A model generated the notes under the pieces. That model saw only the letters and a list, made by a program, of their open reading frames with translations. It was not told the DNA's origin and did no database searches. Of a DNA stretch of 19,777 nucleotides, positions 1 to 19,777 are shown one piece after another. The position numbers were made by a program, and so were the translations under genes. Source of the DNA: a virus (Duplodnaviria; Heunggongvirae; Uroviricota; Caudoviricetes); IMG/VR virus record IMGVR_UViG_2850808358_000001. One strand, given 5' to 3'. Numbering within the stretch: position 1 is the first letter of the stretch; each line of letters starts with the position of its first letter.

Positions 1-303
1 ATGAGCAGAAAAACCCAACGTTACTCTAAAGAGTTCAAAGCCGAAGCTGTCAGAACGGTTCTTGAAAATCAACTTTCGATCAGTGAAGGCGCTTCCCGAT
101 TATCCCTTCCTGAAGGCACTTTAGGACAATGGGTTACCGCCGCCAGAAAAGGGCTCGGTACTCCTGGTTCCCGCACGGTGGCTGAACTGGAATCTGAAAT
201 TCTGCAACTGCGTAAGGCGTTAAATGAAGCTCGCCTTGAGCGAGATATATTAAAAAAAGCAACAGCGTATTTTGCACAGGAGTCGCTGAAAAATACGCGT
301 TAA
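1..303 (+). CDS. IS3-family transposase OrfA (HTH DNA-binding part)
   Basis: 100-aa [23 protein letters not shown]...; typical IS3 OrfA with HTH and leucine-zipper-like C-terminus; A7G slippery run at 252..259 near its 3' end. Confidence 0.9.
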   Translation: MSRKTQRYSKEFKAEAVRTVLENQLSISEGASRLSLPEGTLGQWVTAARKGLGTPGSRTVAELESEILQLRKALNEARLERDILKKATAYFAQESLKNTR

Positions 304-338
304 TCGAACAATGGCGACAACAATTTCCCATTGAAGCG

Positions 339-1157
339 ATGTGTCAGGTATTTGGTGTATCCAGGAGCGGTTATTACAACCGGGTACAGCATGAACCCTC
401 AGACAGAAAACAAAGTGATGAGCGGCTAAAACTGGAGATTAAGGTGGCACATATCCGCACTCGCGAAACATATGGAACCCGGCGGCTCCAGACGGAGCTG
501 GCAGAGAATGGCATCATCGTTGGTCGTGACCGACTGGCACGTCTTCGTAAGGAGCTAAGGCTACGCTGTAAGCAGAAACGCAAGTTCAGAGCGACTACGA
601 ACCCGAACCACAATCTGCCAGTTGCGCCAAATCTGCTGAACCAGACGTTCGCTCCTACAGCACCAAATCAGGTCTGGGTGGCGGACCTGACGTATGTTGC
701 CACACAGGAGGGATGGTTGTACCTCGCTGGCATCAAAGATGTTTATACGTGCGAAATTGTCGGCTACGCCATGGGAGAGCGCATGACAAAAGAGCTGACA
801 GGTAAAGCCCTGTTTATGGCGCTCAGGAGCCAGCGCCCACCTGCCGGGCTAATCCACCACTCTGATCGAGGTTCACAGTACTGCGCATACGATTACCGGG
901 TCATACAGGAGCAGTTTGGTCTGAAAACATCAATGTCGCGTAAAGGTAACTGTTACGACAACGCTCCGATGGAAAGCTTCTGGGGAACGCTGAAAAATGA
1001 GAGCCTGAGCCACTATCGTTTTAATAACCGGGATGAAGCCATCTCAGTAATACGGGAATACATTGAGATTTTCTACAATCGTCAGCGTCGTCACTCTCGT
1101 CTGGGGAATATCTCCCCGGCAGCCTTCAGGGAAAAATATCATCAGATGGCTGCTTAA
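339..1157 (+). CDS. IS3-family transposase OrfB (DDE catalytic domain), probably made as an OrfAB fusion by -1 frameshift
   Basis: 272-aa ORF; the -1 frame is open from the A7G motif (252..259) into this ORF; the ...HHSDRGSQY...YDNAPMESFWGTLK... region fits a DDE integrase-type core. Confidence 0.9.
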   Translation: MCQVFGVSRSGYYNRVQHEPSDRKQSDERLKLEIKVAHIRTRETYGTRRLQTELAENGIIVGRDRLARLRKELRLRCKQKRKFRATTNPNHNLPVAPNLLNQTFAPTAPNQVWVADLTYVATQEGWLYLAGIKDVYTCEIVGYAMGERMTKELTGKALFMALRSQRPPAGLIHHSDRGSQYCAYDYRVIQEQFGLKTSMSRKGNCYDNAPMESFWGTLKNESLSHYRFNNRDEAISVIREYIEIFYNRQRRHSRLGNISPAAFREKYHQMAA

Positions 1158-1200
1158 AAAAAGAACAAATGGTAGTGTCCGCTATTGCCAGTACACCTCA

Positions 1201-6872: not shown

Positions 6873-8298
6873 TTTTTATGCGCCGCCCCATAGCATCGAG
6901 GCAGAGCAGGCGGTGATTGGTGGATTGCTTCTGGATGATGACAGCAGTGAGCGCGTCCAGAAGGTTCTTGCGATGCTGAAGCCTGACTCATTTTACAGCC
7001 GGCCACACAAAATCCTTTTCGAAGAAATAACCAGAATGCACCGGGAGCAAAAGCCAGTAGATGGCCTGACGCTTTTCGATGAACTGGAGCGTAAATCGTT
7101 AACGGCGTCTGTTGGCGGTTTTGCTTATATCGCTGAGATCGCAAAGAACACGCCAAGCGCCGCAAACATCGTTGCCTATGCAATGCAGGTTCGCGAAACC
7201 GCAATGGAACGCTACGCCATCAACCGCATGACTGAAGCGACGGAATTGCTCTATTCCCGCAACGGAATGACTGCAACGCAGAAGTACGAAGCTATTCAGG
7301 CGATTTTCACGCAACTGACAGACCATGCAAAAACCGGATCACGTCGCGGCCTTCGCTCATTTGGTGAGGTCATGGAAGACTGGGTTAGCGACCTTGAGAA
7401 GCGTTTTGACCCGTCAGGCGAACAACGAGGAATGAGCACAGGGATCCCATCGCTGGACAGGATGCTGTCACCGAAAGGTCTGGTGAAAGGCTCTCTGTTT
7501 GTCATTGGCGCTCGCCCTAAGATGGGGAAAACGACGCTATACAGCCAGATGGCAATCAACTGCGCAGTGCATGAGAAAAAGCCCGCTCTGATGTTCAGCC
7601 TTGAAATGCCAGGTGATCAGATACTGGAAAAACTGGTAGGGCAGAAGTCTGGTGTTAACCCGAATATTTTTTACCTTCCGGCGACAAATGACGCCGATGA
7701 CGGCTATCAGGGTGATTACGATGGTGACTTCAACAGGGCGATCGAAACAGCCAATCGCTTGAGTGAAATCGACCTGCTTTACATCGACGACACGCCGGGA
7801 TTATCTCTGGCTCAAATCGTCAGCGAAAGCCGTCGAATCAAGCGAGAAAAAGGATGTGTTGGCATGATTCTGGTCGATTACCTGACACTAATGACCGCTG
7901 AAAAGGCCGATCGCAACGACCTTGCCTACGGCATGATCACCAAAGGACTGAAGAACCTTGCCAAAGAGCTTGATTGCGTTGTTGTGCTTCTGACGCAGCT
8001 TAACCGCGCACTGGAAAGCCGAACCAATAAACGCCCATTACCAAGTGACTCACGAGATACAGGGCAGATTGAACAGGATTGCGATTATTGGGTGGGGATC
8101 CATCGTGAAGGTGCTTTTGATGACAGTGTTCCACCTGGTGAAACCGAACTAATCCTTCGTCTCAATCGTCATGGCAATACCGGCACGGTGTATTGCATTC
8201 AGGCAAATGGAGCTATTTATGACACAGACCAACAGTCTGCTGAAATGCGCCGCCGTGAACGCGAGGAACCGCAGTCCAAGAAGAAAGGAGGATTCTGA
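6862..8298 (+). CDS. replicative DNA helicase (DnaB-like, P22 gene 12 type)
   Basis: N-terminal DnaB-like domain (PHSIEAEQAVIGGLLLD), Walker A-like GARPKMGKT, Walker B-like ILVDYL; ATG 6862 with GAGGG SD. Confidence 0.85.
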   Translation: MTDNFYAPPHSIEAEQAVIGGLLLDDDSSERVQKVLAMLKPDSFYSRPHKILFEEITRMHREQKPVDGLTLFDELERKSLTASVGGFAYIAEIAKNTPSAANIVAYAMQVRETAMERYAINRMTEATELLYSRNGMTATQKYEAIQAIFTQLTDHAKTGSRRGLRSFGEVMEDWVSDLEKRFDPSGEQRGMSTGIPSLDRMLSPKGLVKGSLFVIGARPKMGKTTLYSQMAINCAVHEKKPALMFSLEMPGDQILEKLVGQKSGVNPNIFYLPATNDADDGYQGDYDGDFNRAIETANRLSEIDLLYIDDTPGLSLAQIVSESRRIKREKGCVGMILVDYLTLMTAEKADRNDLAYGMITKGLKNLAKELDCVVVLLTQLNRALESRTNKRPLPSDSRDTGQIEQDCDYWVGIHREGAFDDSVPPGETELILRLNRHGNTGTVYCIQANGAIYDTDQQSAEMRRREREEPQSKKKGGF

Positions 8299-8378
8299 TG
8301 ACCATCTACATCACTGAGCTAATAACAGGCCTGCTGGTAATCGCAGGCCTTTTTATTTGGGGGAGAGGGAAGTCATGA
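8298..8378 (+). CDS. putative small hydrophobic peptide (26 aa)
   Basis: Not in the ORF track; ATG overlaps the helicase stop (TGATG) with AAGGAGGA SD 7 nt upstream; translation [26 protein letters not shown]; stop overlaps the ninB ATG (ATGA). Confidence 0.3.
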   Translation: MTIYITELITGLLVIAGLFIWGRGKS

Positions 8379-8815
8379 AAAAACTAACCTTTGAAATTCG
8401 ATCTCCAGCACATCAGCAAAACGCTATTCACGCGGTACAGCAAATTCTTCCAGACCCAACCAAACCAATCGTAGTAACCATTCAGGAACGCAACCGCAGC
8501 TTAGACCAGAATCGAAAGCTTTGGGCTTGCCTTGGTGACGTCTCTCGTCAGGTTGAATGGCATGGTCGCTGGCTGGATGCAGAAAGCTGGAAGTGTGTGT
8601 TTACCGCGGCATTAAAGCAGCAGGACGTTGTTCCTAACCTTGCCGGGAATGGCTTTGTGGTAATAGGCCAGTCAACCAGCAGGATGCGTGTAAGCGAATT
8701 TGCGGAGTTATTAGAGCTTATACAGGCATTCGGTACAGAGCGTGGCGTTAAGTGGTCAGACGAAGCGCGACTGGCTCTGGAGTGGAAAGCGCGATGGGGA
8801 GATCGGGCTGCATGA
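8375..8815 (+). CDS. ninB: NinB-like recombination protein
   Basis: [24 protein letters not shown]...; position after the replication genes matches lambdoid ninB; assignment from memory. Confidence 0.8.
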
Positions 8816-9501
8816 CTATCAAATCAAATACGCCAGCACACGACAAGGACTGCTGGCAAACGCCACTTTGGCTTTTTGATGCGCTGGATATTGAGTTTGG
8901 ATTCTGGCTGGATTCGGCAGCGAGCGACAAAAATGCTCTGTGCGCTCACTGGCTAACTGAGGCCGACGACGCGCTCAATTCTGAGTGGGTAAGCCACGGT
9001 GCAATCTGGAATAACCCACCGTACAGCAATATCAGGCCGTGGGTGGAAAAAGCCGCTGAGCAGTGTATACAACAGCGACAGACGGTAGTTATGCTTGTGC
9101 CAGAGGATATGTCAGTCGGATGGTTCAGCAAGGCTCTGGAGAGTGTTGACGAAGTTCGCATCATCACTGATGGACGGATTAATTTTATCGAACCATCGAC
9201 AGGGCTGGAGAAAAAGGGAAACAGTAAAGGCTCAATGCTGCTGATTTGGCGACCGTTCATCAGTCCCCGGCGAATGTTTACTACCGTATCCAAAGCGGCA
9301 TTGATGGCGATCGGGCAGGGCGGCATGAGGCGACAGCGACGAAGTATTACCGACATAATCTGTGAAAACTGCAAATACCTTCCAACGAAACGCTCCAGAA
9401 ATAAACGCAAGCCAATCCCAAAAGAATCTGACGTAAAAACCTTCAACTACACGGCTCACCTGTGGGATATCCGGTGGCTAAGACATCGTGCGAGGAAATG
9501 A
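8812..9501 (+). CDS. phage DNA N6-adenine methyltransferase (Dam-like) with an unusual basic C-terminal extension
   Basis: NPPYS motif (DPPY-type motif IV) and CWQTP...F.LD.AA pattern of phage Dam family; ATG 8812 overlaps the ninB stop; last ~55 aa are Lys/Arg-rich and atypical. Confidence 0.75.
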
Positions 9502-9542
9502 CTATTTATCCGGTGCGCCGCCAGAATGACGGCGCGGTGTGG

Positions 9543-9851
9543 TTAAACGAAGCGGATCTGGAGTTTTTTTCCAGTAGCGCGGGCGAATTTTTTTAGTGTG
9601 GCAAATGATGGGCCGCTGATACCTGATGCGAGATTACTTTCCATTCTGGTGATCGCGGTCGCTTTTGTTCCCATTCGCTCGGCAACTTCAGCCTGAGTTA
9701 AGCCAGCTTCTTTGCGTGCTGCCAGCATTTCATCAAGCAGTGCGAATTCGTCAGCGATAGCGTCGTATTCTGCTTTAAAAGCCGGGTCTTCCATCCATTT
9801 GGCTGCCATTTCGTCGTGTGTCATGGTGGGGAGAGTGCGTTTACCAGTCAT
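9543..9851 (-). CDS. HTH (XRE-family) antitoxin, HigA-like
   Basis: 102-aa ORF with HTH (GLTQAEVAERMGTKATAITRME); its ATG overlaps the toxin stop by 11 nt (ATGACTGGTAA); toxin-first gene order is typical of HigBA-type modules. Confidence 0.75.
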   Translation of the reverse strand: MTGKRTLPTMTHDEMAAKWMEDPAFKAEYDAIADEFALLDEMLAARKEAGLTQAEVAERMGTKATAITRMESNLASGISGPSFATLKKFARATGKKLQIRFV

Positions 9852-10170
9852 GCTTAACCTCCTTCATTCTGGTTTCAGCTTTCTTGCGTTCGGCTGGCGG
9901 TGTTTTCTGCGTTTTCTTTACAAAACTATGCAGCATGATGATGCGTTTCCCTGTCAGAGTGCAGTAAAAAACACGCGCGATCCCATCGTTGCCTTTAATT
10001 CTGAGTTCGAAAAGTCCGTCACCAAAGGCGCTGGTGTGAGGTTCTCCGAGATTGCTGCCATATATCTTCATACGTTCAACGAGATGTTGGTATCGGGCAC
10101 GCATACTCAATGGAAGCCGATCGACTTCCAGCCTTACATCTTCACTGTAGTATTCGATAGTGTAGTTCAT
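9841..10170 (-). CDS. RelE/HigB-superfamily toxin (Gp49-like)
   Basis: 109-aa ORF from MNYTIEYYSEDVRLEVDRLP...; size, toxin-first order and overlap with an HTH partner fit a type II toxin. The ORF track extends it to 10251 via an upstream start that I reject. Confidence 0.75.
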   Translation of the reverse strand: MNYTIEYYSEDVRLEVDRLPLSMRARYQHLVERMKIYGSNLGEPHTSAFGDGLFELRIKGNDGIARVFYCTLTGKRIIMLHSFVKKTQKTPPAERKKAETRMKEVKHDW

Positions 10171-10180
10171 AGGTATCAAC

Positions 10181-10196
10181 ATAACAAAATCGTTAT
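10181..10196. promoter_or_regulatory. palindromic putative operator upstream of the toxin gene
   Basis: ATAAC-AAAATC-GTTAT perfect inverted repeat 11..26 bp upstream of the toxin ATG, overlapping a candidate -10 region on the - strand. Confidence 0.4.
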
Positions 10197-10292
10197 ATGC
10201 ATTCAAGGCCTGTAGTTGACGACAACACATATCCGGGGCTATATTCCTCATACGCCAGCAAAATCTGGCGTCGGGATTGAGACCCCGGATGT

Positions 10293-10749
10293 TTACGGAG
10301 CGATATGAGACGCGCCCGCGTCTTTTTTCATATCGTTTGCACAGTCACATTCGCGATTTATGGTGGGCTGTGTGGGGGAGCCGAAACCGATAACCATTTC
10401 TTTGTTGAAGAGACAAAGCGAGCAGGCCAGTCCGATCGCGGTCCAACTGAGCCCCATTTCACGGGATTTTTCGGTAATACCATTCTCCCGATTGCTCCAG
10501 CGTTCCATAATCCAGTGGATCCACTCCTCCTGCTTAGGGAAGAGTAAAAACGGAATGGTCACCGGCAGGCCATAATCAATATTACGCGGGTCCGTTGTCA
10601 TGCCCCAGCCGATAATGAACTGAGCCGGGTTGGTACGGTAAAACTGTTTTAGTGCAGGCAATATTTCAGGATTCTGGCGAATGCGCTGTAGGCGTTCCAT
10701 CCGCCATTCAAAAACCATCTGGTAATCAGGATGTTTAAAATCGAAGGGT
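10293..10749 (-). pseudogene. large terminase subunit, N-terminal ATPase portion only; split by IS600 and 3'-truncated
   Basis: Frame ...[15 protein letters not shown]...[20 protein letters not shown]... resembles the N-terminal ATPase region of P22-like TerL; continuous in frame with the 6 codons at 12014..12030 across IS600 copy 2; stops after ~150 aa where a full TerL would be ~450-500 aa. Confidence 0.65.
10308..10328 (+). terminator. intrinsic terminator-like hairpin with T5 tract on the + strand
   Basis: AGACGCG..CGCGTCT stem followed by TTTTT; lies inside the 3' end of the truncated terL reading frame, suggesting foreign junction sequence. Confidence 0.45.
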
Positions 10750-10813
10750 TGAGGTAGCCTGAGTTTAACGGACACTCCTTCCTGAAATAGAATGGCATCA
10801 GAAGGAGCTAATA

Positions 10814-11116
10814 ATGAGCAGAAAAACCCAACGTTACTCTAAAGAGTTCAAAGCCGAAGCTGTCAGAACGGTTCTTGAAAATCAACTTTCGATCAGTGAA
10901 GGCGCTTCCCGATTATCCCTTCCTGAAGGCACTTTAGGACAATGGGTTACCGCCGCCAGAAAAGGGCTCGGTACTCCTGGTTCCCGCACGGTGGCTGAAC
11001 TGGAATCTGAAATTCTGCAACTGCGTAAGGCGTTAAATGAAGCTCGCCTTGAGCGAGATATATTAAAAAAAGCAACAGCGTATTTTGCACAGGAGTCGCT
11101 GAAAAATACGCGTTAA
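10814..11116 (+). CDS. IS3-family transposase OrfA
   Basis: Identical protein to copy 1 OrfA. Confidence 0.9.
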
Positions 11117-11151
11117 TCGAACAATGGCGACAACAATTTCCCATTGAAGCG

Positions 11152-11970
11152 ATGTGTCAGGTATTTGGTGTATCCAGGAGCGGTTATTACAACTGGGTAC
11201 AGCATGAACCCTCAGACAGAAAACAAAGTGATGAGCGGCTAAAACTGGAGATTAAGGTGGCACATATCCGCACTCGCGAAACATATGGAACCCGGCGGCT
11301 CCAGACGGAGCTGGCAGAGAATGGCATCATCGTTGGTCGTGACCGACTGGCACGTCTTCGTAAGGAGCTAAGGCTACGCTGTAAGCAGAAACGCAAGTTC
11401 AGAGCGACTACGAACCCGAACCACAATCTGCCAGTTGCGCCAAATCTGCTGAACCAGACGTTCGCTCCTACAGCACCAAATCAGGTCTGGGTGGCGGACC
11501 TGACGTATGTTGCCACACAGGAGGGATGGTTGTACCTCGCTGGCATCAAAGATGTTTATACGTGCGAAATTGTCGGCTACGCCATGGGAGAGCGCATGAC
11601 AAAAGAGCTGACAGGTAAAGCCCTGTTTATGGCGCTCAGGAGCCAGCGCCCACCTGCCGGGCTAATCCACCACTCTGATCGAGGTTCACAGTACTGCGCA
11701 TACGATTACCGGGTCATACAGGAGCAGTTTGGTCTGAAAACATCAATGTCGCGTAAAGGTAACTGTTACGACAACGCTCCGATGGAAAGCTTCTGGGGAA
11801 CGCTGAAAAATGAGAGCCTGAGCCACTATCGTTTTAATAACCGGGATGAAGCCATCTCAGTAATACGGGAATACATTGAGATTTTCTACAATCGTCAGCG
11901 TCGTCACTCTCGTCTGGGGAATATCTCCCCGGCAGCCTTCAGGGAAAAATATCATCAGATGGCTGCTTAA
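11152..11970 (+). CDS. IS3-family transposase OrfB (DDE domain)
   Basis: Identical to copy 1 OrfB except R14W (c to t at 11194). Confidence 0.9.
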   Translation: MCQVFGVSRSGYYNWVQHEPSDRKQSDERLKLEIKVAHIRTRETYGTRRLQTELAENGIIVGRDRLARLRKELRLRCKQKRKFRATTNPNHNLPVAPNLLNQTFAPTAPNQVWVADLTYVATQEGWLYLAGIKDVYTCEIVGYAMGERMTKELTGKALFMALRSQRPPAGLIHHSDRGSQYCAYDYRVIQEQFGLKTSMSRKGNCYDNAPMESFWGTLKNESLSHYRFNNRDEAISVIREYIEIFYNRQRRHSRLGNISPAAFREKYHQMAA

Positions 11971-12013
11971 AAAAAGAACAAATGGTAGTGTCCGCTATTG
12001 CCAGTACACCTCA

Positions 12014-12030
12014 GGGAATGGTAACGGCAT
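12014..12030 (-). pseudogene. first 6 codons of terL (MPLPFP), separated from the rest by IS600 copy 2
   Basis: ATG at 12030..12028 overlapping the terS stop region; joins in frame to 10749 when the IS is removed. Confidence 0.5.
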
Positions 12031-12032
12031 AC

Positions 12033-12587
12033 TTAGCCCATCATTTTTCTATACACCTCTGCGGCCTGCTCAGGCGTTAATTTGGTAATTTCTGTTCTGA
12101 CTGGTCCTCCGTCAGCGCCAGTCACTTCATTTTTGACGTTGTCTTTAAACGCCTGAACAGAAACATGACGCCCAAGCAACTCAAGGTTTTTAACCTTATC
12201 AGGCCATTTGATTTTCTTCAGAAGTGCGGTGCTATCTGCGGATACCATCTCCACGACATCCATTCCTGATAGCGTTGTGCGCCATACCTTAGGCCAGTCT
12301 TTAATGGGCTTTAGCTCACCGTTTTGCAGGAGAATGTCGAGCACATCCATCTGGTCGATTTCAACCAATCTACGAAGAACATAGGCGGCATCTATACCCG
12401 TCTGCTCAACGCGGGCGGATTTAAGTTCAGCAACGAATTTTTGAACATTAACATTTGCTAATAATCGAGATGCCTGCTCATTGGCGGTCTTCTCGCTGTA
12501 GCCCGCCCTGATAGCTGCCTGTGTGCCGTTCAGATCTTTCAGGTACTCACGGGCAAACAGCTCTTGTTTGTCGGTGAGCTTTGCCAT
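12033..12587 (-). CDS. terminase small subunit
   Basis: 184-aa ORF MAKLTDKQELFAREYLKDLNGTQAAIRAGYSEKTA...; HTH-like N-terminus typical of small terminase subunits; immediately upstream of terL. Confidence 0.75.
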   Translation of the reverse strand: MAKLTDKQELFAREYLKDLNGTQAAIRAGYSEKTANEQASRLLANVNVQKFVAELKSARVEQTGIDAAYVLRRLVEIDQMDVLDILLQNGELKPIKDWPKVWRTTLSGMDVVEMVSADSTALLKKIKWPDKVKNLELLGRHVSVQAFKDNVKNEVTGADGGPVRTEITKLTPEQAAEVYRKMMG

Positions 12588-12688
12588 TATTTGTGCTCCG
12601 TTTATCCGTTAAAAGGGATATCAGTTAAGTTATCCCGTGTAGGGTATAAGCCATTATCAAGCCCACCAGTAGATGGGCTTTGTAATGG

Positions 12689-12946
12689 CTACTTCGCTTT
12701 TGCTTCCGCTCGCTTACGCCGGCGCTCTTCTTTCCTCTCGGCTTTTGCCATGTCCATGAATGTCTGCATGATCGAGTTCCGCATCATGTAGCTAACAAAG
12801 TGATGATTGACACAGCCGTTGAGGCGCAGCTGCTCGCCAAACTCATCCACCGAGGCCAATGCTTCCATCATGCCCTTCTCGCCTTTCATGAACTCTGAGA
12901 AGTCGCGCCCCGCTCTGGAGGCGCATTCAATGACACGATCACTCAT
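12689..12946 (-). CDS. hypothetical protein (85 aa) with basic C-terminus
   Basis: ATG overlaps the stop of the KilA-N gene (ATGA coupling); C-terminal ERKEERRRKRAEAKAK; no family recognised. Confidence 0.5.
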   Translation of the reverse strand: MSDRVIECASRAGRDFSEFMKGEKGMMEALASVDEFGEQLRLNGCVNHHFVSYMMRNSIMQTFMDMAKAERKEERRRKRAEAKAK

Positions 12947-13440
12947 CCCGGAAGCCCGGGGATCGTTATCTGCAGCTGGTTAGCCAGGGAGTTAATCTCA
13001 GCGACCAACACTGGCTTCGTATAGCGCCATGCCGCCAGCCCTTGTCCACAGAAGCTCGCCATATCTTTTTTCTGATCAAACTCATGACACTTCATATTGA
13101 GCTGCGCACTTAAGCTGTTGCGATGCTGAAGTTCTCCGGTGAAGTAGTCATCCAGGACTTTATAGGCTGCATATTTAAATCCGGGGTTTAGCCATGCTGC
13201 ATAATCATAAGCAACAAACTTCCCGCCATATGTTCCACCGTGTACACCGCGCTCAGTAAAAACCACAGATTCGTGGTTTTTCTCCAGCTCGGCTAAGAAC
13301 TCTTTGGTCTGCTTGTTTCGCAGGTAGTGGTACGGAGATTCAGATTCACTTTTACCACTGGCTTTCCACATATCAGTGAGGCAGATCATTCCTGATTCAT
13401 CAACACGGATCGGTGTATTAAAAAGCGTGATTGCTTTCAT
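12943..13440 (-). CDS. KilA-N domain protein
   Basis: Pattern ...KQTKEFLAELEK...TERGVHGGTYGGKFVAYDYAAWLNPGF... fits the KilA-N DNA-binding domain signature as I recall it. Confidence 0.7.
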   Translation of the reverse strand: MKAITLFNTPIRVDESGMICLTDMWKASGKSESESPYHYLRNKQTKEFLAELEKNHESVVFTERGVHGGTYGGKFVAYDYAAWLNPGFKYAAYKVLDDYFTGELQHRNSLSAQLNMKCHEFDQKKDMASFCGQGLAAWRYTKPVLVAEINSLANQLQITIPGLPG

Positions 13441-13588
13441 GGCGTCTTTACCTTTTAGAAAGATGAGCCTGTTCGCACAGAAAAGCCGTCCCCGAGATGG
13501 TCGCCACCATATACGGCAATTCTCAGGCTCAGCTTTCTGAAAGACTCGGGGTTTATATGCGCTGCGATGCGCGGTTTACTGCGGACAT

Positions 13589-13612
13589 ATAAAAGCCCCG
13601 CAAGTGCGAGGC
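13589..13612 (-). terminator. terminator-like hairpin downstream of Rz/Rz1
   Basis: Minus strand GCCTCGCA-CT-TGCGGGGC (one mismatch) followed by TTTTAT. Confidence 0.45.
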
Positions 13613-13645
13613 TCATTAAATGGACTTTGTGATTTGCAAAAAAAT

Positions 13646-14113
13646 TTATTTCAGGCACTGAGTCCTGATGTACTCCTGAAGCATTCTCAATGCTGTCTGG
13701 TCGCTGATGATTCCGTCCCGGATACCGAGAACGTTTCGTCCAGCAACTGGAGAGAGTTCGACGGTGGCATCATTGCCCATGCCGGAGGCGCTGGAGGTTT
13801 CGGCTGAGGATGGCACAGGGCATTTTCCTTTGACGAGCACCCGACCACCATTATCAAGCTTGCGCCGAAGAGCATCATTTTCAGCTTTCGCATTGGCTAA
13901 CTCCTTCGTGTATTTAGCATCGAGTGCATCAGCAGCACGCTGGCGCTGCTGCATGTCAGTAATGGTTGCGTTCGCCAGCTTCAGTTCTCTTGCGTTTTTG
14001 TCGCGCTGCTCTTTGTAGGTAATGGCGTTATCACGGTAATGATTAACAGCCCATGACAGGCGGACGATGATGCAGATAACCAGAGCGGAGATAATCGCGG
14101 TGACTCTGCTCAT
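13646..14113 (-). CDS. Rz: Rz i-spanin
   Basis: [17 protein letters not shown]...[11 protein letters not shown]...[18 protein letters not shown] closely resembles lambda Rz; ATG overlaps the R stop (ATGA). The ORF track starts 4 codons earlier at 14125. Confidence 0.85.
13687..13893 (-). CDS. Rz1: Rz1 o-spanin (lipoprotein) embedded in the +1 frame of Rz
   Basis: [21 protein letters not shown]... with lipobox-like VVGC and Pro-rich PKPPAPPAW, like lambda Rz1; fully inside Rz in another frame. Confidence 0.6.
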
Positions 14114-14607
14114 TGCTGCCCCCACAAACAGACTTCACGCTCAATCTCACGACGGGTCATCAGCCCTTTCCATTGCTTACCGCCAGCATATGTCCAGCGA
14201 CGTAGCTGGTCACATGCGCCTTTGATATCGCCCTGGTTTATTTTGCGAAGAAGCGTCGATGTTCTGAAATTGCCAGCGCCCACGTTGTAAACGAACGAGT
14301 AAAGAGCGCCGCGCGTTGTTTCCGGTATATCGACTTTGATGTACGGGTTAATTTGTCTGGCGACAGTGGCAAGGTCTTTATTCAGGAGAGCTTTGCATTC
14401 TGCTTCGGTATACGTTTTACCAGGCATGATGTCTTTTCCGGTGTGTCCGTGACATACAGTCCATACACCAATGATATCTTTGTATGGTATGTAGCTGACA
14501 CCTTCCAGACCATCGTTACCACCTGGGCCAGTGATTAACACAGATGCTATAGCAACAGCCCCGCCACCAATAGCAACTGCAACAGCCTTGCGTAATGATG
14601 GCGACAT
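14110..14607 (-). CDS. R: SAR endolysin (phage-21 R type lysozyme)
   Basis: N-terminal Gly/Ala-rich signal-anchor-release segment ([18 protein letters not shown]) followed by a lysozyme domain; near-identical to phage 21 R as I recall it. Confidence 0.9.
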
Positions 14608-14822
14608 TATTCACCTCTCGCAGCCTTACGCTTGTCTTCTCTTAATTTGAAATACAGATTCGTCAGATAAGTCAGAAGCCCCAGAAGCAGACTTCCCAGC
14701 ACACCAATCGCAGCCCACTGTGATGGACTGACCTGATCCAACCACTGCAAAAACCAGTAGCCGGCACTGCCGGCGGAGGTGCCGTAGGCAATGCCCGTTG
14801 AAATTTTGTCCATGGATTTCAT
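14607..14822 (-). CDS. S: pinholin (phage-21 S type) with dual-start motif MKSM
   Basis: 71-aa [47 protein letters not shown]...; two TM segments; GGAGG SD upstream; start overlaps the R gene. Confidence 0.9.
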
Positions 14823-14937
14823 AGCCTCACCTCCGCAAATAACGGATGGCGTAGTTCTTATATTGGAAGGGAAAAAAAAGGCCGCAGCGTAACTGTCACT
14901 GATGAATTCAGGATAGCCAGTGGCTACGGCTCAGTTA

Positions 14938-15013
14938 TGGTGCTGGTTAACGGACTTGAACCGCTACCCATTCGCTTACAAGGCGACTGCTCTACCATTA
15001 GAGCTAAACCAGC
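14938..15013 (-). tRNA. phage-encoded tRNA, anticodon read as UGU (tRNA-Thr), CCA encoded
   Basis: Manual fold of the minus strand: acceptor GCUGGUU/AACCAGC, D-arm GCUC/GAGC with GG loop, anticodon loop CUUGUAA, T-arm with UUCAAGU loop, 3' ACCA; one non-WC pair at the top of the anticodon stem. Confidence 0.6.
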
Positions 15014-15018
15014 ATATT

Positions 15019-15093
15019 TGGCGGGACAGCGTGGACTCGAACCACGATAAGAAGGTTAACAGCCTTCCGTAATGACCTTTATACGACTGACCC
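15019..15093 (-). tRNA. phage-encoded tRNA, anticodon read as GUU (tRNA-Asn), CCA encoded; may be degenerate
   Basis: Manual fold: T-arm CGUGG-UUCGAGU-CCACG perfect, anticodon stem GAAGG/CCUUC perfect with loop CUGUUAA; acceptor and D stems each carry one mismatch. Confidence 0.5.
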
Positions 15094-15125
15094 AAATAAA
15101 AAATCCCGAAAGCAGGCTCTATTCC
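15094..15125 (-). terminator. putative tR'-like terminator region (U-tract) ending the short pR' transcript
   Basis: Minus strand ...AGAGCCTGCTTTCGGGATTTTTTATTT about 180 nt downstream of pR'; resembles the lambda tR' 3' end as I recall it, but I could not fold a clean stem. Confidence 0.35.
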
Positions 15126-15282
15126 TATGTGCTCTCGAGTTTATGATGCGCATGTCAGTGCGCTTAGCGAAAAACGCCGTAAACCCTCGCCCGACAGGGC
15201 GGGGAGCAGTCACAACTTAAAGATGAGGTGGGTAAAAAACCGAAAGAATGTGAACGGATATAAACCTGCCATTCTTGAGTCA

Positions 15283-15311
15283 AATTTACCCAACTTTATT
15301 CAAAAAGTCAA
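15283..15311 (-). promoter_or_regulatory. late promoter pR' with qut-like region
   Basis: Minus strand TTGACT-N17-TAAATT followed by TTGACTCAAGAATGG; closely resembles lambda pR'/qut as I recall it; located ~40 bp downstream of Q. Confidence 0.65.
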
Positions 15312-15353
15312 TATCATGCCGTTAAGATATTGCCATCCATGGCAATCATGCCG

Positions 15354-15977
15354 CTAACGTGTGACCGCATTCAAAATGTTGTCTGCGATTGACTCTTCTT
15401 TGTGGCATTGCACCACCAGAGCGTCATACAGCGGCTTAACAGTGCGTGACCATGTGGGTTGGGTGAGGTTTGGGATTAGCATCGTTACAGCGCGATATGC
15501 TGCACTTGCTGGCATCCTTGAATAGCCGACACCTTTGCATCTTCCGCACTCTTTCTCGACAACTCTCCCCCACTGCTCTGTTTTGGCTATATCAACTGCC
15601 AGACCTGTTCCGTGGCAATCTCTGCATCTTGCGCCCGGCGTCGCGGCACTACGGCAATAATCCGCATAAGCGAATGTTGCGAGCACTTGCAGTACCTTTG
15701 CCTTAGTATTTCCTTCGAGCTTTGCCACACCACGGTATTTCCCCGATACCTTGTGTGCAAATTGCATCAGATAGTTGATAGCCTTTTGTTTGTCGTTCTG
15801 GCTGAGTTCATGCTTACCGCAAAATGCAGCCATTCCGAATCCGGCTTGTGATTGCGCCATCCCCATAGCAGCCATCACATCAGTACCGGAAAGAGAGTCA
15901 GAAGCCGTAGCCCGTGGTGAGTCGCTCATCATCGGGCTTTTTGGCGAATGAAATTTAGCTACGCTTTCGAGTCTCAT
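15354..15977 (-). CDS. Q: antitermination protein Q (Cys-rich type, as in phage 82/21-like Q)
   Basis: 207-aa ORF with CRDCHGTG...CGRCKGVGY zinc-binding-like motifs; directly upstream of pR'; ATG overlaps the upstream gene stop. Confidence 0.7.
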   Translation of the reverse strand: MRLESVAKFHSPKSPMMSDSPRATASDSLSGTDVMAAMGMAQSQAGFGMAAFCGKHELSQNDKQKAINYLMQFAHKVSGKYRGVAKLEGNTKAKVLQVLATFAYADYCRSAATPGARCRDCHGTGLAVDIAKTEQWGRVVEKECGRCKGVGYSRMPASAAYRAVTMLIPNLTQPTWSRTVKPLYDALVVQCHKEESIADNILNAVTR

Positions 15978-16162
15978 CGTCTTCCCCTCTTGCCCTGTTT
16001 GACCATCAGGACGCCGTTAACTATTACGTGACGCTCGCCTTTGCTGTCTCGGTTGTACTTGAGCACTGTTCCTCTTGCGCAGGAAAGCATCCTCGCCACT
16101 TCGGTCTGATTGCCTCGTGTCTGGATAAGAAGCTCTGGTATCGTTTGAATTGTGGCGTTCAT
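15974..16162 (-). CDS. small nin-region protein (62 aa), possibly DNA-binding
   Basis: ORF MNATIQTIPELLIQTRGNQTEVARMLSCARGTVLKY...; translationally coupled (ATGA overlaps) with rusA upstream and Q downstream. Confidence 0.5.
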   Translation of the reverse strand: MNATIQTIPELLIQTRGNQTEVARMLSCARGTVLKYNRDSKGERHVIVNGVLMVKQGKRGRR

Positions 16163-16521
16163 ACGTTCTCCAGTTCGGTGATTTTTATTCCAAGCCTTCC
16201 GCCTGGTACTTTCACACCACGAATTACGCGAATGTCATCGAATTGCTCGTCGTCTTCCGCAAATCCGGCGTGGATAAGAGAGTCGAGTAGCCCCTTCAGG
16301 ATGTTGTCGAGGTCGCGGCGGCGGGAGTCTGGAACGTCTGCGATGACTTTGATGCGGAGTCGTGCTTTGGTGAAAATATCTAACTTGAGTTGGCGGATGA
16401 TTTGCTGAACGTCTTTTCGGTATTTCTGGCCTTTATCGCTGATGTAGTATTGGCTTCCCCGTCTTCGCCAGTAGGTGTTCAGCGACGGTGGGTATGGAAG
16501 CACAAACTGATATTCGTTCAT
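16159..16521 (-). CDS. rusA: RusA Holliday-junction resolvase
   Basis: Motifs PPSLNTYW and DSRRRDLDNILKGLLDSL match the RusA family signature. Confidence 0.85.
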   Translation of the reverse strand: MNEYQFVLPYPPSLNTYWRRRGSQYYISDKGQKYRKDVQQIIRQLKLDIFTKARLRIKVIADVPDSRRRDLDNILKGLLDSLIHAGFAEDDEQFDDIRVIRGVKVPGGRLGIKITELENV

Positions 16522-16808
16522 GGCTTAATCTTCCCCTCCTTCAGCAGTATCGCCTGCGTCCTGATCACGCCTTCGAGGTGGTAAAGTCTGGCGTCTTTGT
16601 TGTCGAGGTTATGGGTGCGTCGGTCGATTTCATCGTGACACGCGCTACAAGCCCATGCGCCGATCAGGTCGTCAGGCTTCATTCCCGTTCCGCAAATTCC
16701 AGCCATCCGGTAATGTGCCAGAACTGTAGTTTCAGGATTGCCATTGCATACGCCGTAAATACGTACCTGGCATTCTCTGCCGCGCGCTTCTTTGCGTAAG
16801 TTAGCCAT
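16518..16808 (-). CDS. YbcO-like nin-region protein (DUF1364-type, Cys/His-rich putative nuclease)
   Basis: MANLRKEARGRECQVRIYGVCNGNPETTVLAH...CSACHDEIDRR resembles DLP12 YbcO as I recall it; GGAGG SD; upstream of rusA as in DLP12. Confidence 0.75.
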   Translation of the reverse strand: MANLRKEARGRECQVRIYGVCNGNPETTVLAHYRMAGICGTGMKPDDLIGAWACSACHDEIDRRTHNLDNKDARLYHLEGVIRTQAILLKEGKIKP

Positions 16809-17536
16809 TAAGCAGCCTCCCCTGTTACTTTCAGCATTCCGTTATAGAGCAGCTTTCTGGTCAGCCACTGTTGGCCACGCCCGGTGATTTTTGTGGTGAA
16901 CGATATCTGTATTCCGTGATTTGTGTTGACTGCTGTTTCTTTCACTGTGAAATAGCCGCGATCCATATATTCCTGCATTGGCACATTGCGCCGGGAACCT
17001 GAAGCAATAAGGATTTTGTGATCGCGCATCCACGCAAACAGTTTGTTTGGACCAATTCCAACAACCTTTGCAAAGTTTCCAATCAAAATTCCGCTGGCCT
17101 CGCTAACGCGATCGGCAAACTCAACTTTAGGTGCTGCGAGAGCAAGCTGTTTCTCCAGTTCAGCCTTCTGGTCTTCAAGGTCGGCCGCAAGGCGCAATGC
17201 CTCAGAAAAGGTTTGTGGGATTTTCGCGGTTGCCCCTTCAAGCTCTCGCCAACGGTCAACAAGACGAGCGGTGAATTCCGGCGACAACTGGGCAACGACA
17301 ATAATGCTGTCGCGCTTACCTTGTTCGCCTTCGAAGACGTAATGCTCGTACTGAACATTGAACCCTAAGTTATTGATTCTTTCGGAAACCTCAAATTGAG
17401 GATGCCGGATAACACCATTTTTAGCCAGCGTTTCGATGGTACGTTTCACATTGTCATGACGCTTACCCACCAACTCAGCGATTTCAATGCTGGTCATTTT
17501 GATGGCGTTGCTATTTATCAGCTCGTTCATTGTCAT
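16808..17536 (-). CDS. phage antirepressor (Rha-type N-terminal domain plus Ant-like C-terminal domain)
   Basis: N-terminus ...MTSIEIAELVGKRHDNVKRTIETL matches the Rha family signature; the likelier start is ATG 17530 (GAGG SD at 8 nt) rather than 17536. Confidence 0.75.
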   Translation of the reverse strand: MTMNELINSNAIKMTSIEIAELVGKRHDNVKRTIETLAKNGVIRHPQFEVSERINNLGFNVQYEHYVFEGEQGKRDSIIVVAQLSPEFTARLVDRWRELEGATAKIPQTFSEALRLAADLEDQKAELEKQLALAAPKVEFADRVSEASGILIGNFAKVVGIGPNKLFAWMRDHKILIASGSRRNVPMQEYMDRGYFTVKETAVNTNHGIQISFTTKITGRGQQWLTRKLLYNGMLKVTGEAA

Positions 17537-17553
17537 GTCCTCTCATATTGAAA

Positions 17554-17575
17554 ATTCAGCAATAAAAAACCCAGC
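17554..17575 (-). terminator. rho-independent terminator
   Basis: Minus strand CCCAGC-TTCG-GCTGGG hairpin followed by TTTTTT; downstream of the ORF ending at 17605. Confidence 0.6.
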
Positions 17576-17604
17576 CGAAGCTGGGTCGTTGCGTTGGCAA
17601 TCTG

Positions 17605-17976
17605 TCAGTAGTGATGTAGTGAAGGAGGTAATTCTTTGTTCTTAAGTCTTACCCATGCAGAAAGATTCGTTGGTCCGTCTGGCTCATTAATATCAACATC
17701 TCGTGTGTGATTGATTAAAACGTCTCTCGCCATTCCGATAACATACGAGAACTCATGACCGTAGTCGTGGCATCTGCCGGAATAGTTAGACTGAATTTGT
17801 CTTAGCGCCGGATACAGTTCGCGGAATAATGCCTGTGAGCGGTTGGCATAATCCCACAACCATACCAGACTGTTTGCATCTTTTGCAGAAAGCTCGCTGG
17901 TTTTCTTCTCGTGATGACCTGCGCTTTTCGAAGTCTGGCTGAAATAGCAGTCTTCCAGTTTTTCGAACACGTCCAT
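17605..17976 (-). CDS. hypothetical protein, or C-terminal part of a frameshifted ORF6N-domain gene
   Basis: 123-aa [17 protein letters not shown]... overlapping by ~175 nt the other open frame that continues from the ORF6N domain. Confidence 0.4.
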
Positions 17977-18281
17977 GCCTGATCGGTTTCGAGCATCTTC
18001 GCGTGACGGGCTGCGCCTCGTTCTGTCCAGAGGATGAGCGAGCGGGCATTTTTACCAACTAACCCGATTGTTTCGGGTCTGTTCTTAAACTCGCGTAATT
18101 CGTTTTTTTCAATTTTAAAGTAATGCTTTCCTACCACGAATCGCATCGTGTTGTTCAGAAAATTATCAGAAATGTTTTTGATTTTTGTTCCGTATAACTG
18201 CGCCAGAAGTTCAGTTGTAATAACGGGGATCTGGTTGTGGGTGATTGCAGGAAGAGTGTCGACAGAAATTTGAGTGAGCAT
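17802..18281 (-). CDS. ORF6N-domain (antirepressor-like) protein
   Basis: ...[15 protein letters not shown]...NISDNFLNN...[14 protein letters not shown]...[24 protein letters not shown] fits the ORF6N-type domain pattern; ATG 18281 with GGAG SD; the ORF track extends the frame into IS600 because the IS end is open in that frame. Confidence 0.55.
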
Positions 18282-18409
18282 AACGATAACTCCGTACATT
18301 TGGTCATTATCGCCACCTTCTGGTCTCAATAATCTGGTGGCGAGCTGAGGTAGCCTGAGTTTAACGGACACTCCTTCCTGAAATAGAATGGCATCAGAAG
18401 GAGCTAATA

Positions 18410-18712
18410 ATGAGCAGAAAAACCCAACGTTACTCTAAAGAGTTCAAAGCCGAAGCTGTCAGAACGGTTCTTGAAAATCAACTTTCGATCAGTGAAGGCG
18501 CTTCCCGATTATCCCTTCCTGAAGGCACTTTAGGACAATGGGTTACCGCCGCCAGAAAAGGGCTCGGTACTCCTGGTTCCCGCACGGTGGCTGAACTGGA
18601 ATCTGAAATTCTGCAACTGCGTAAGGCGTTAAATGAAGCTCGCCTTGAGCGAGATATATTAAAAAAAGCAACAGCGTATTTTGCACAGGAGTCGCTGAAA
18701 AATACGCGTTAA
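18410..18712 (+). CDS. IS3-family transposase OrfA
   Basis: Identical protein to copies 1 and 2. Confidence 0.9.
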   Translation: MSRKTQRYSKEFKAEAVRTVLENQLSISEGASRLSLPEGTLGQWVTAARKGLGTPGSRTVAELESEILQLRKALNEARLERDILKKATAYFAQESLKNTR

Positions 18713-18747
18713 TCGAACAATGGCGACAACAATTTCCCATTGAAGCG

Positions 18748-19564
18748 ATGTGTCAGGTATTTGGTGTATCCAGGAGCGGTTATTACAACCGGGTACAGCA
18801 TGAACCCTCAGACAGAAAACAAAGTGATGAGCGGCTAAAACTGGAGATTAAGGTGGCACATATCCGCACTCGCGAAACATATGGAACCCGGCGGCTCCAG
18901 ACGGAGCTGGCAGAGAATGGCATCATCGTTGGTCGTGACCGACTGGCACGTCTTCGTAAGGAGCTAAGGCTACGCTGTAAGCAGAAACGCAAGTTCAGAG
19001 CGACTACGAACCCGAACCACAATCTGCCAGTTGCGCCAAATCTGCTGAACCAGACGTTCGCTCCTACAGCACCAAATCAGGTCTGGGTGGCGGACCTGAC
19101 GTATGTTGCCACACAGGAGGGATGGTTGTACCTCGCTGGCATCAAAGATGTTTATACGTGCGAAATTGTCGGCTACGCCATGGGAGAGCGCATGACAAAA
19201 GAGCTGACAGGTAAAGCTCTGTTTATGGCGCTCAGGAGCCAGCGCCCACCTGCCGGGCTAATCCACCACTCTGATCGAGGTTCACAGTACTGCGCATACG
19301 ATTACCGGGTCATACAGGAGCAGTTTGGTCTGAAAACATCAATGTCGCGTAAAGGTAACTGTTACGACAACGCTCCGATGGAAAGCTTCTGGGAACGCTG
19401 AAAAATGAGAGCCTGAGCCACTATCGTTTTAATAACCGGGATGAAGCCATCTCAGTAATACGGGAATACATTGAGATTTTCTACAATCGTCAGCGTCGTC
19501 ACTCTCGTCTGGGGAATATCTCCCCGGCAGCCTTCAGGGAAAAATATCATCAGATGGCTGCTTA
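18748..19564 (+). pseudogene. IS3-family transposase OrfB inactivated by frameshift
   Basis: G-run is GGG at 19391..19393 where copies 1 and 2 have GGGG; the ORF stops prematurely at 19401 (217 aa instead of 272). Confidence 0.8.
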
Positions 19565-19608
19565 AAAAAAGAACAAATGGTAGTGTCCGCTATTGCCAGT
19601 ACACCTCA

Positions 19609-19777
19609 CCCTGACGTATACCCACAGACGACCCGTTTTCGTCTTTCCGTTCCCCGGGGCCAGTACTTTCACCGGAGTGTCATCTGCGTGCACCTTTCCT
19701 GCCTCCAGAACATAGTCATTCAGCGCTATATACAGAGGACGGAGTTTGTCTGCCATTTCTGATACCCAGCGCACCAT
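19609..19777 (-). pseudogene. IS66-family transposase fragment, interrupted by IS600 copy 3 and running off the window
   Basis: Frame ...HADDTPVKVLAPGNGKTKTGRLWVYVR ends exactly at the IS600 terminus; motif typical of IS66-family transposases. Confidence 0.6.

Follow-up and report, generated by a model that had tools for sequence, protein, structure and literature searches.

We consider it probable that the large terminase gene (terL) described here is a pseudogene within a decayed lambdoid prophage on a Shigella/EIEC-type chromosome (CP026877.1), shaped by an IS600 insertion, by an inversion at an 11-bp microhomology and by later IS600-by-IS600 recombination. The inserted element, the junction at terL codon 129, the inverted orientation of the late genes and the absence of structural genes are all observed in the window, the whole 19,777-nucleotide stretch of DNA (Table 1). 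From this arrangement we infer that terL was destroyed by at least two independent events, together with the order and mechanism of those events that are proposed below.

Table 1 Features of the terL locus and its surroundings (feature, window positions, strand, description)
IS600 copy 1	1..1200	+	cut by window start
Toxin-antitoxin pair, nin region	9543..10230	-	Gp49/HigB-like toxin 9841..10230; HTH antitoxin 9543..9851
Non-terL frame tail	10293..10375	-	27 codons + TAA, from DNA upstream of the toxin-antitoxin operon
Rearrangement junction	10376..10386		11-bp microhomology GGGAGCCGAAA
terL remnant	10376..10749	-	codons 6/7 to 129, ending ...VIGFGS
IS600 copy 2	10750..12013	+	complete, 1264 bp, TG..CA ends, imperfect terminal inverted repeats
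IS600 copy 2 orfA	10814..11116
IS600 copy 2 orfB	11152..11970
IS600 copy 2 target duplication	10747..10749		GGT (+ strand); partner GGG at 12014..12016
terL 5' stub	12014..12030	-	ATG + 14 nt (codons 1-5 + 2 nt of codon 6)
terS (small terminase subunit)	12033..12587	-	intact, 184 aa
Remaining inverted late block	12014..18345	-	collinear with RMDEC465 5067848..5061514; orientation opposite to window 8298..10386
IS600 copy 3	18346..19608	+	1263 bp, caps far end of inverted late block
ISSfl3 (IS66 family) fragment	19609..19777		part of tnpC; Pfam DDE_Tnp_IS66

Removal of IS600 copy 2 joins position 12014 to 10749 in frame, yielding an open reading frame of 157 codons that ends at a TAA at 10293..10295; the start codon, the position of the element and the in-frame join put forward in the original prediction are thus all present. 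The stop codon of terS (12033..12035) is followed after 2 nt by the ATG at 12030 (minus strand), which places the frame directly behind the small terminase gene, and the 5' stub is identical to the first bases of intact terL genes (atgccgttaccattccc). At the DNA level the remnant (10376..10748) is 99.5% identical over 373 nt to terL of the RMDEC465 prophage (5067847..5068219), and window 12014..12687 is 99.3% identical to an intact E. coli prophage. The protein alignment that had been suggested as a check gave 90.8% identity between residues 1-141 of the joined frame and the TerL of phage vB_EcoM-683R1, a match to an annotated phage protein that, judged on sequence, lies far above chance, and the terminase large subunit profile phrog_2 is matched by both the remnant (E = 3.3e-8) and the intact homologue (E = 7.8e-29). 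The gene likewise follows terS in E. coli prophages, in phages vB_EcoM-683R1, -689R2, -611R5 and -606R2 (ON470593 and others) and in Salmonella phage SEN34 (Brunovirus), and the phage proteins are 87-91% identical to window residues 1-129. A second terL, which would have weakened the case for a lost terminase, was sought in the window and not found.

Copy 2 carries the hallmarks of IS600, an IS3-family element of about 1264 bp: beyond the length, termini, inverted repeats and orfA/orfB pair listed in Table 1, it has an A6G slippery (-1 frameshift) motif at 11066 and the Pfam domains HTH_Tnp_1 and rve, and similar E. coli loci carry the annotation "IS3-like element IS600 family transposase". 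The element is a simple insertion inside terL codon 6, as had been supposed, because its two flanks directly adjoin each other in intact terL genes (window 10748 and 12014 correspond to the contiguous RMDEC465 positions 5067847 and 5067848). The target duplication expected of IS600 is 3 bp, in direct orientation. Here it is imperfect, with two of the three bases matching and the mismatch adjoining IRL (intact terL reads ATCGAA-GGGG-AATGG, and the window reads ATCGAAGGGT and GGGAATGG on either side of the IS); an alternative reading of the ends is a 2-bp duplication with one additional T at IRL. The joined frame contains one surplus codon owing to the target duplication: it reads MPLPFP-P-FDF, compared with MPLPFPFDF or a close variant of it at the N-termini of all 14 homologous TerL proteins.

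How much of the protein survives is set by the end of the homology and not by the stop codon. Of the joined frame, TerL accounts for residues 1-130 alone, the similarity ceasing at codon 129 of 539 (window 10376), and the last 27 residues (10375..10296) derive from intergenic DNA unrelated to terL; the segment 10293..10375 matches DNA beside a RelE/ParE-family toxin gene in RMDEC465 and FDAARGOS_943. A terminator-like hairpin lies within this segment, at 10307..10324 (plus strand). Intact homologues are proteins of 539-540 aa with Walker B and nuclease domain, whereas the window retains codons 1-129, themselves split by IS600. An 11-residue Walker-A-like motif (reference residues 98-108) is kept at 10472..10440, and the candidate Walker B motif VDEAAF (202-207) and the SSVNG motif (229-233) fall beyond the breakpoint and are absent, so the remnant does not hold a complete N-terminal ATPase with Walker A, Walker B with its catalytic Glu, and coupling motif. 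These motifs were assigned from established knowledge of TerL P-loops rather than from a structure. The RNase-H-like C-terminal nuclease domain, at 289-523 in the intact homologue, is likewise missing from the window. The remnant should consequently be unable to act as a working terminase, because 76% of the protein has been lost, including Walker B with the catalytic Glu (reference ~200-204) and the whole nuclease domain.

Searches of Pfam and NCBIfam returned no family for the remnant or for the intact 539-aa homologue, and sequence and profile searches of the PDB, as well as hhalign against Sf6 gp2, detected the nuclease domain and no N-terminal ATPase domain. The N-terminal part is predicted to be the ATPase from its motifs, its position and the PHROG profile. 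An AlphaFold2 model of a close homologue (P0016, 17-sequence alignment) had a mean pLDDT of 40.8, which was too poor, and it was not used. The description of this TerL as P22-like did not hold up in the strict sense. Residues 214-450 of Sf6 gp2 (PDB 4idh, 5c10-5c15) align with residues 289-523 of the intact homologue (hhalign probability 99.5%, identity 37%), and 8dkr also aligns to the nuclease domain, but Sf6 gp2 gives no sequence or profile alignment with the N-terminal part, which is all that the window still has of the protein. The RMDEC465 head and tail genes also differ from P22-type morphogenesis genes, with a DUF3383 protein, a neck terminator protein and a tail fiber protein. Neither full-length similarity to P22/Sf6 gp2 nor a P22-type morphogenesis module was therefore found, and the closest phages are labelled vB_EcoM, with SEN34 as another.

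The DNA that follows codon 129 reveals the second lesion. Two alignments to RMDEC465, one on its plus strand (5059375..5061474, matching window 8298..10386) and one on its minus strand (5068219..5061514, matching window 10376..18347), overlap by exactly the 11 bases 10376..10386. This sequence, GGGAGCCGAAA, is common to antisense terL (codons 127-130) and to the intergenic DNA upstream of the toxin gene, so that terL codon 129/130 runs directly into the DNA upstream of the toxin-antitoxin operon in this prophage's own nin region, and the toxin-antitoxin pair now stands directly downstream of the remnant in the same orientation. Both genes have clear Pfam matches (toxin Gp49, E = 1.4e-25; antitoxin HTH_3, E = 3.4e-11), and their homologues in the reference prophages are annotated as a type II TA system. 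The canonical order in three related prophages is early genes, toxin-antitoxin pair, antirepressor, Q and lysis genes; one of the three, RMDEC465, also has this terS-terL together with head and tail genes. When two intact prophages of E. coli are taken as the standard, the window's late block (antirepressor, Q, two tRNAs, lysis genes, terS and terL codons 1-129) has the reverse orientation with respect to the early region. Its genes comprise the terL start, terS (Pfam Terminase_2, E = 4e-38; phrog_51, E = 8e-51; same length as the reference gene), a KilA-N protein, Rz, lysozyme, holin, tRNA-Thr, tRNA-Asn, Q, NinH, RusA, YbcO, and Rha/ANT and ORF6N/P22AR antirepressors. The intergenic region between the toxin-antitoxin pair and P22AR, unbroken in two reference prophages, is split in the window: one part stops at 10386 and the other begins, inverted, at 18345, with 41 nt missing between them. 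As a separate observation, the DNA upstream of the toxin-antitoxin pair holds a small palindrome, GAGCC-GAAA-GGCTC, whose 5' arm and loop overlap the microhomology.

The far ends of the element are also marked by insertion sequences. Three near-identical IS600 copies occur in the window. Copy 1 ends the left (pL) arm of the prophage, after an Nmad5 gene. Copy 3 has a 1-bp deletion at IS position 1046 that leaves an OrfB of only 217 aa, and it lacks a target duplication (flanks AGC and CCC): its left flank is intergenic DNA from upstream of P22AR and its right flank is the interior of ISSfl3 tnpC, the ISSfl3 fragment being 100% identical to annotated ISSfl3 transposase genes.

We propose the following history. 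Ordinary transposition would first have placed IS600 inside codon 6, leaving a 3-bp duplication that now reads GGT/GGG. Illegitimate recombination or replication template switching at the 11-bp inverted microhomology, between GGGAGCCGAAA upstream of the nin-region toxin gene and TTTCGGCTCCC at terL codons 127-130, would then have inverted a 6.7-kb late block from the antirepressors through terL codons 1-129, with the result that terL would run from codon 129 into the toxin-antitoxin upstream region and meet a stop 27 codons on. Such an inversion predicts a reciprocal junction, CCGGGTACGGAAACCGGCGAGCC-TTTCGGCTCCC-GTAAAGAGGAATACG. Later IS600-by-IS600 recombination may have removed or relocated this junction along with the remaining terL and all morphogenesis genes, a step suggested by the absence of a target duplication at copy 3 and by its abutment on the ISSfl3 fragment. 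Recombination between IS600 copies 2 and 3 was also considered as a source of the inversion and was rejected, since both flanks of copy 2 are contiguous terL and copy 2 thus cannot have been a partner.

A different origin for the inverted arrangement would be illegitimate recombination between two lambdoid prophages in opposite orientation, giving a large chromosomal inversion in which the early and late parts come from different prophages. Several related lambdoid prophages do occur in Shigella-type genomes, identity to the one reference, RMDEC465, varies from 96.1% to 99.5% along the window, and the immunity region differs from that reference; this origin is nevertheless unlikely, as in two reference prophages both breakpoints map to a single intergenic region and within 41 nt of each other, which is expected of an inversion in place and would otherwise be a coincidence. 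We give little credence to an adaptive version of events, in which hairpin-stimulated template switching caused the inversion and the antisense placement of Q, the lysis cassette and terS acts as a one-step "safety catch" that fixes the remnant in its host. In a still more speculative variant, the hybrid ORF would be expressed with the toxin-antitoxin operon and block packaging by related superinfecting phages. In this ORF an IS600-derived start is followed by TerL residues 7-129 and the 27-residue tail.

All three junctions of the locus are seen only in assembly CP026877.1. None of 5,426 complete E. coli genomes has the junction between terL and the toxin-antitoxin region, exact-match scans of species-representative genomes and metagenome contigs did not find it, and the exact hybrid protein occurs on one contig among ~15 billion proteins. 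When TerL residues 131-539 were used as a protein query, the hits were 90%-cluster representatives alone, from which a copy in the source genome itself is not separable, and a search of the literature on accession CP026877.1 and its assembly found nothing. This rarity, with the junction in no other collection searched, is what would be expected of an assembly or chimeric-read artefact at a locus that in reality carries the IS600 insertion only. We regard such an artefact as very improbable: misassembly normally occurs at long repeats, such as the 1.26-kb IS600, and not at 11 bp of microhomology, the record is a finished 5.13-Mb chromosome, and the other two junctions are equally strain-specific, as expected in an IS-rich lineage. 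Least tenable is the model in which the prophage is otherwise collinear and terL has, besides the IS600 insertion, a premature stop or a simple loss of its 3' part. It correctly has a simple insertion and a frame ending after 157 codons but is refuted because the DNA past codon 129 is the prophage's own nin-region toxin-antitoxin upstream DNA, not downstream phage or host DNA. Such DNA is normally found 6.7 kb upstream of terL, with the relative orientation reversed, and a deletion cannot give the arrangement seen here. The 3' truncation of the original prediction is thus a rearrangement junction at codon 129 rather than a stop inside terL.

With the in-place inversion as the preferred reading, the state of the prophage can be reassessed. 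It had been called packaging-defective, which agrees with a terminase that should be inactive but understates the damage, in that portal, head and tail genes are absent from the window and the borders of the element are formed by IS600 copies and the ISSfl3 fragment. The lysis, tRNA and accessory genes had also been taken as its only retained functions, yet repressor, cro, cII, O, DnaB-like helicase, NinB and the toxin-antitoxin pair are full-length ORFs too. After the inversion Q and the lysis genes would face away from the early rightward operon and be uncoupled from it, making their expression doubtful. The idea that the window could be the IS600-flanked stx region of S. dysenteriae 1 was considered and rejected, there being no stxA- or stxB-sized ORFs between Q and holin, just two tRNAs.

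The cryptic lambdoid remnants DLP12, Rac and Qin of E. coli K-12 similarly still have Q with the lysis and nin genes but no longer their morphogenesis genes, and IS elements bound or interrupt them; here the late block is also inverted relative to the early operon, via an 11-bp microhomology. In Shigella/EIEC, IS600 is multicopy and breaks genes and prophages, as it does here, the departures from its norm being the one-base mismatch in the copy 2 duplication and the missing duplication of copy 3. The terL locus is a case of ordinary prophage decay, of an already known kind and usual in Shigella-type genomes. Its significance is small beyond annotation, where the gene would be entered as a terL pseudogene belonging to a prophage remnant that is rearranged and non-inducible, rather than as part of a defective but complete prophage. 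It does offer a base-resolved case of three decay processes, IS insertion, microhomology-mediated inversion and IS-by-IS recombination, at one gene and its surroundings, and with three directly repeated IS600 copies the segments between them are likely prone to more deletion or amplification. IS600, which contributes to gene loss, is one of the five IS that have expanded in every Shigella species (PMC7373316), and the locus fits the role of IS600 expansion in the degradation of Shigella/EIEC genomes (PMC7373316).

The terL ATG lies at 12030, two bases past the terS stop codon, and the reading frame continues through atgccgttaccattccc (12030..12014) up to IS600 copy 2, whose termini (TGAGGT...ACCTCA) form imperfect inverted repeats. 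Two further copies of the element, ..1-1200 and 18346..19608, share its orientation, and the three differ at only three positions; E. coli loci matching the element carry the annotation "IS3-like element IS600 family transposase". When copy 2 was excised in silico, 12014 joined 10749 in frame, as the original prediction had proposed, giving 157 codons that end with TAA at 10293..10295. The proposed simple insertion is likewise borne out: the reference positions on either side of the element, 5067847 and 5067848, are neighbors in the intact terL of the E. coli RMDEC465 prophage, and copy 2 is therefore a simple insertion inside terL codon 6. The window sequence around the element is ccattccc-IS600-acccttcgat, against ccatt-cccc-ttcgat (MPLPFPFDF) in intact homologues. 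The flanks on the plus strand, GGT (10747..10749) and GGG (12014..12016), are explained with equal parsimony by a 3-bp target duplication with one mismatch beside the IRL or by a 2-bp duplication plus an extra T. The additional proline in the joined frame (MPLPFP-P-FDF), absent from all 14 homologous TerL N-termini retrieved, is the duplicated codon.

Coordinates of the terminase, IS600 copy 2 and antirepressor features in the window
Feature	Coordinates	Strand	Details
terS, small terminase	12587..12033	-	184 aa; Pfam Terminase_2 E=4e-38; phrog_51 E=8e-51
IS600 copy 2	10750..12013		1264 bp; directly after the terL 12030..12014 stub
IS600 copy 2 orfA	10814..11116		Pfam HTH_Tnp_1
IS600 copy 2 orfB	11152..11970		Pfam rve
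IS600 copy 2 A6G slippery motif	11066		
ORF6N/P22AR-type antirepressor ORF	17802..18281	-	159 aa; 225 aa in RMDEC465 (5061580..5062257)

Over residues 1-141 only, the joined-frame protein is 90.8% identical to the annotated large terminase of Escherichia phages vB_EcoM-683R1, -689R2, -611R5 and -606R2 and 87.2% identical to that of Salmonella phage SEN34; the DNA at 10376..10748 is 99.5% identical to terL of the RMDEC465 prophage, a gene of 539 codons followed by portal, head-morphogenesis and tail genes. No Pfam or NCBIfam model detects this TerL family, even when the full-length protein is used, and the PHROGs family phrog_2 ("terminase large subunit") is matched by the remnant (E=3.3e-8) and by residues 33-529 of the intact protein (E=7.8e-29). 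Residues 289-523 of intact TerL align with the nuclease domain of Sf6 gp2 (PDB 4idh, 5c10) and with 8dkr; no solved structure aligned by sequence with the N-terminal part. Based on motifs invariant across 14 homologues and on established knowledge of TerL P-loops, the 11-residue motif at 98-108 would be a Walker-A-like motif of the lambda gpA "KSxxxGxS" type, Y-x-VDEAAF (200-207) a putative Walker B with the catalytic Glu, and SSVNG (229-233) a candidate coupling motif; the AlphaFold model (pLDDT 40.8) is too poor to serve as a test of these readings. The window TerL belongs with that of the vB_EcoM-named phages and SEN34; P22/Sf6 gp2 is only a distant relation.

At its 3′ end, terL homology stops at 10376, right after codon 129 (...VIGFGS), where intact genes continue with RKEEYVDSTGD and the window encodes 27 different residues and a stop. 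Window 8298..10386 matches RMDEC465 5059375..5061474 (98.95% identity); this segment carries the genes for NinB, an N6-adenine methyltransferase, NinE, an HTH antitoxin and a Gp49/HigB-like toxin of the RelE/ParE family, together with the first 216 bp on the upstream side of the last. Window 10376..18347 matches 5068219..5061514 of the same prophage on the opposite strand. These alignments have exactly 11 bases in common, GGGAGCCGAAA (10376..10386); one copy of this sequence lies upstream of the toxin gene and another, reverse-complemented, at terL codons 127-130. In RMDEC465 and FDAARGOS_943, one unbroken intergenic region separates the toxin gene from the P22AR antirepressor gene; the window has the left part of this region up to 10386 and the right part, inverted, from 18345, and lacks the 41 nt between them. 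The canonical order, common to three related prophages, is early genes, toxin-antitoxin pair (divergently oriented), antirepressors, Q, tRNA-Asn, tRNA-Thr, holin, lysozyme and Rz; of these prophages, RMDEC465 also has this terS, terL and structural genes. Judged against these prophages, the stretch running from the antirepressor gene through terL codon 129 is therefore inverted in the window relative to the early region; it measures 6.7 kb in the reference, to which the window adds IS600 copy 2. The predicted 3′ truncation is thus real, and its description incomplete: terL is fused at an inversion junction to the upstream region of the prophage's own toxin-antitoxin pair, and no stop lies inside terL itself.

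In the reference (L003), the upstream 11-bp copy sits on a short palindrome, GAGCC-GAAA-GGCTC (~11463..11482; window 10376..10400), whose GAAA loop is where the breakpoint falls; the palindrome may have stimulated template switching, or its position may be coincidental. A terminator-like hairpin, GAGACGCGCCCGCGTCTT followed by TTTTT (10307..10324, plus strand), lies upstream of the toxin gene within the 27 codons that are not terL; on the rightward strand of the canonical prophage, its place would be between the antirepressor gene and the toxin-antitoxin pair. Gene calling gave a 160-aa ORF (10775..10293) whose GTG start lies inside the IRL of IS600, with an AAGGAG motif directly abutting that GTG, a poor ribosome-binding-site spacing; this ORF is considered an artefact of the fusion.

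Within a 15-billion-protein collection, the exact hybrid ORF occurs on one contig, the 5.13-Mb chromosome CP026877.1 of GCA_002950035.1. Among 5,426 complete E. coli genomes, not one contains the terL/toxin-antitoxin, IS600/terL or antirepressor-upstream/IS600 junction, and the first is also absent from species-representative genomes and metagenome contigs; the arrangement therefore looks strain- or lineage-specific. The terL/toxin-antitoxin junction could alternatively be a misassembly, yet one formed at an 11-bp microhomology rather than at a 1.26-kb repeat would be unusual. IS600 is one of five IS expanded in all Shigella species and is found in EIEC lineages (PMC7373316); the presence of IS600 and ISSfl3 points to a Shigella/EIEC-type lineage.

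At its far end (18345), the inverted block adjoins the IRL of IS600 copy 3, which has no target duplication (flanks AGC and CCC); on the other side of that copy, 19609..19777 matches an internal part of tnpC from ISSfl3 (IS66 family) at 100% identity. A 1-bp deletion at IS position 1046, one of the three differences among the copies, cuts the OrfB of copy 3 to 217 aa; copy 3 has the appearance of a recombinant copy and is probably unable to transpose on its own. On the left side, the pL arm breaks off at copy 1, following an Nmad5 gene remnant. Full-length ORFs remain for the repressor (HTH_3 and S24 peptidase domains), cro, cII, N, O, a DnaB-like helicase, NinB, the toxin-antitoxin pair, Q, NinH, RusA, holin, lysozyme, Rz and terS, with Q, holin, lysozyme, Rz and terS equal in length to the reference. 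The window's ORF6N/P22AR-type antirepressor gene, shorter than its RMDEC465 counterpart, may be truncated or frameshifted. Compared with RMDEC465, the window has lost 11 bp at 9316/9317 (AGGGCGTCAGG, flanked by short AGGGCG repeats); this deletion merges the genes for the phage N6-adenine methyltransferase and NinE into a single ORF of 229-249 aa (8752..9501, plus strand), in which Pfam Dam and Pfam NinE are both present. Between Rz and terS (12689..13440, minus strand), the window encodes two proteins, one of 165 aa (KilA-N/ORF11CD3) and one of 85 aa (phrog_875), where RMDEC465 (L003 16347..16943) has a Rha-family regulator, an ordinary lambdoid module exchange.

The insertion, the junction and the orientations are directly observed; for the order and mechanism of events, we infer the following. 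IS600 would have transposed into terL codon 6, after which the late block would have flipped via illegitimate recombination or template switching at the 11-bp inverted microhomology, possibly favored by the palindrome under its upstream copy. An IS600 at the distal junction would then have recombined with another IS600 seated in an ISSfl3, so that terL codons 130-539 and the morphogenesis genes were removed or relocated along with the 41 nt and the reciprocal junction. Copy 2 took no part in these recombinations, as the terL sequence on its two sides is still contiguous.

With 24% of TerL left, and neither Walker B nor the nuclease domain, the remnant cannot package DNA; no second terL is present in the window. 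"Packaging-defective prophage", the earlier description, is too mild for an IS-bounded remnant with no portal, head or tail gene in the window: the locus cannot make particles in any case. The late block now presents its antisense strand to the early rightward operon, so that Q has lost its place downstream of that operon; Q, the lysis cassette and terS are therefore unlikely to be expressed from it. The locus represents ordinary IS-driven prophage decay, a kind of event already known, and its three direct IS600 copies, which enclose segments of ~9.5 kb and 6.3 kb, permit deletion or tandem amplification of these segments via homologous recombination.
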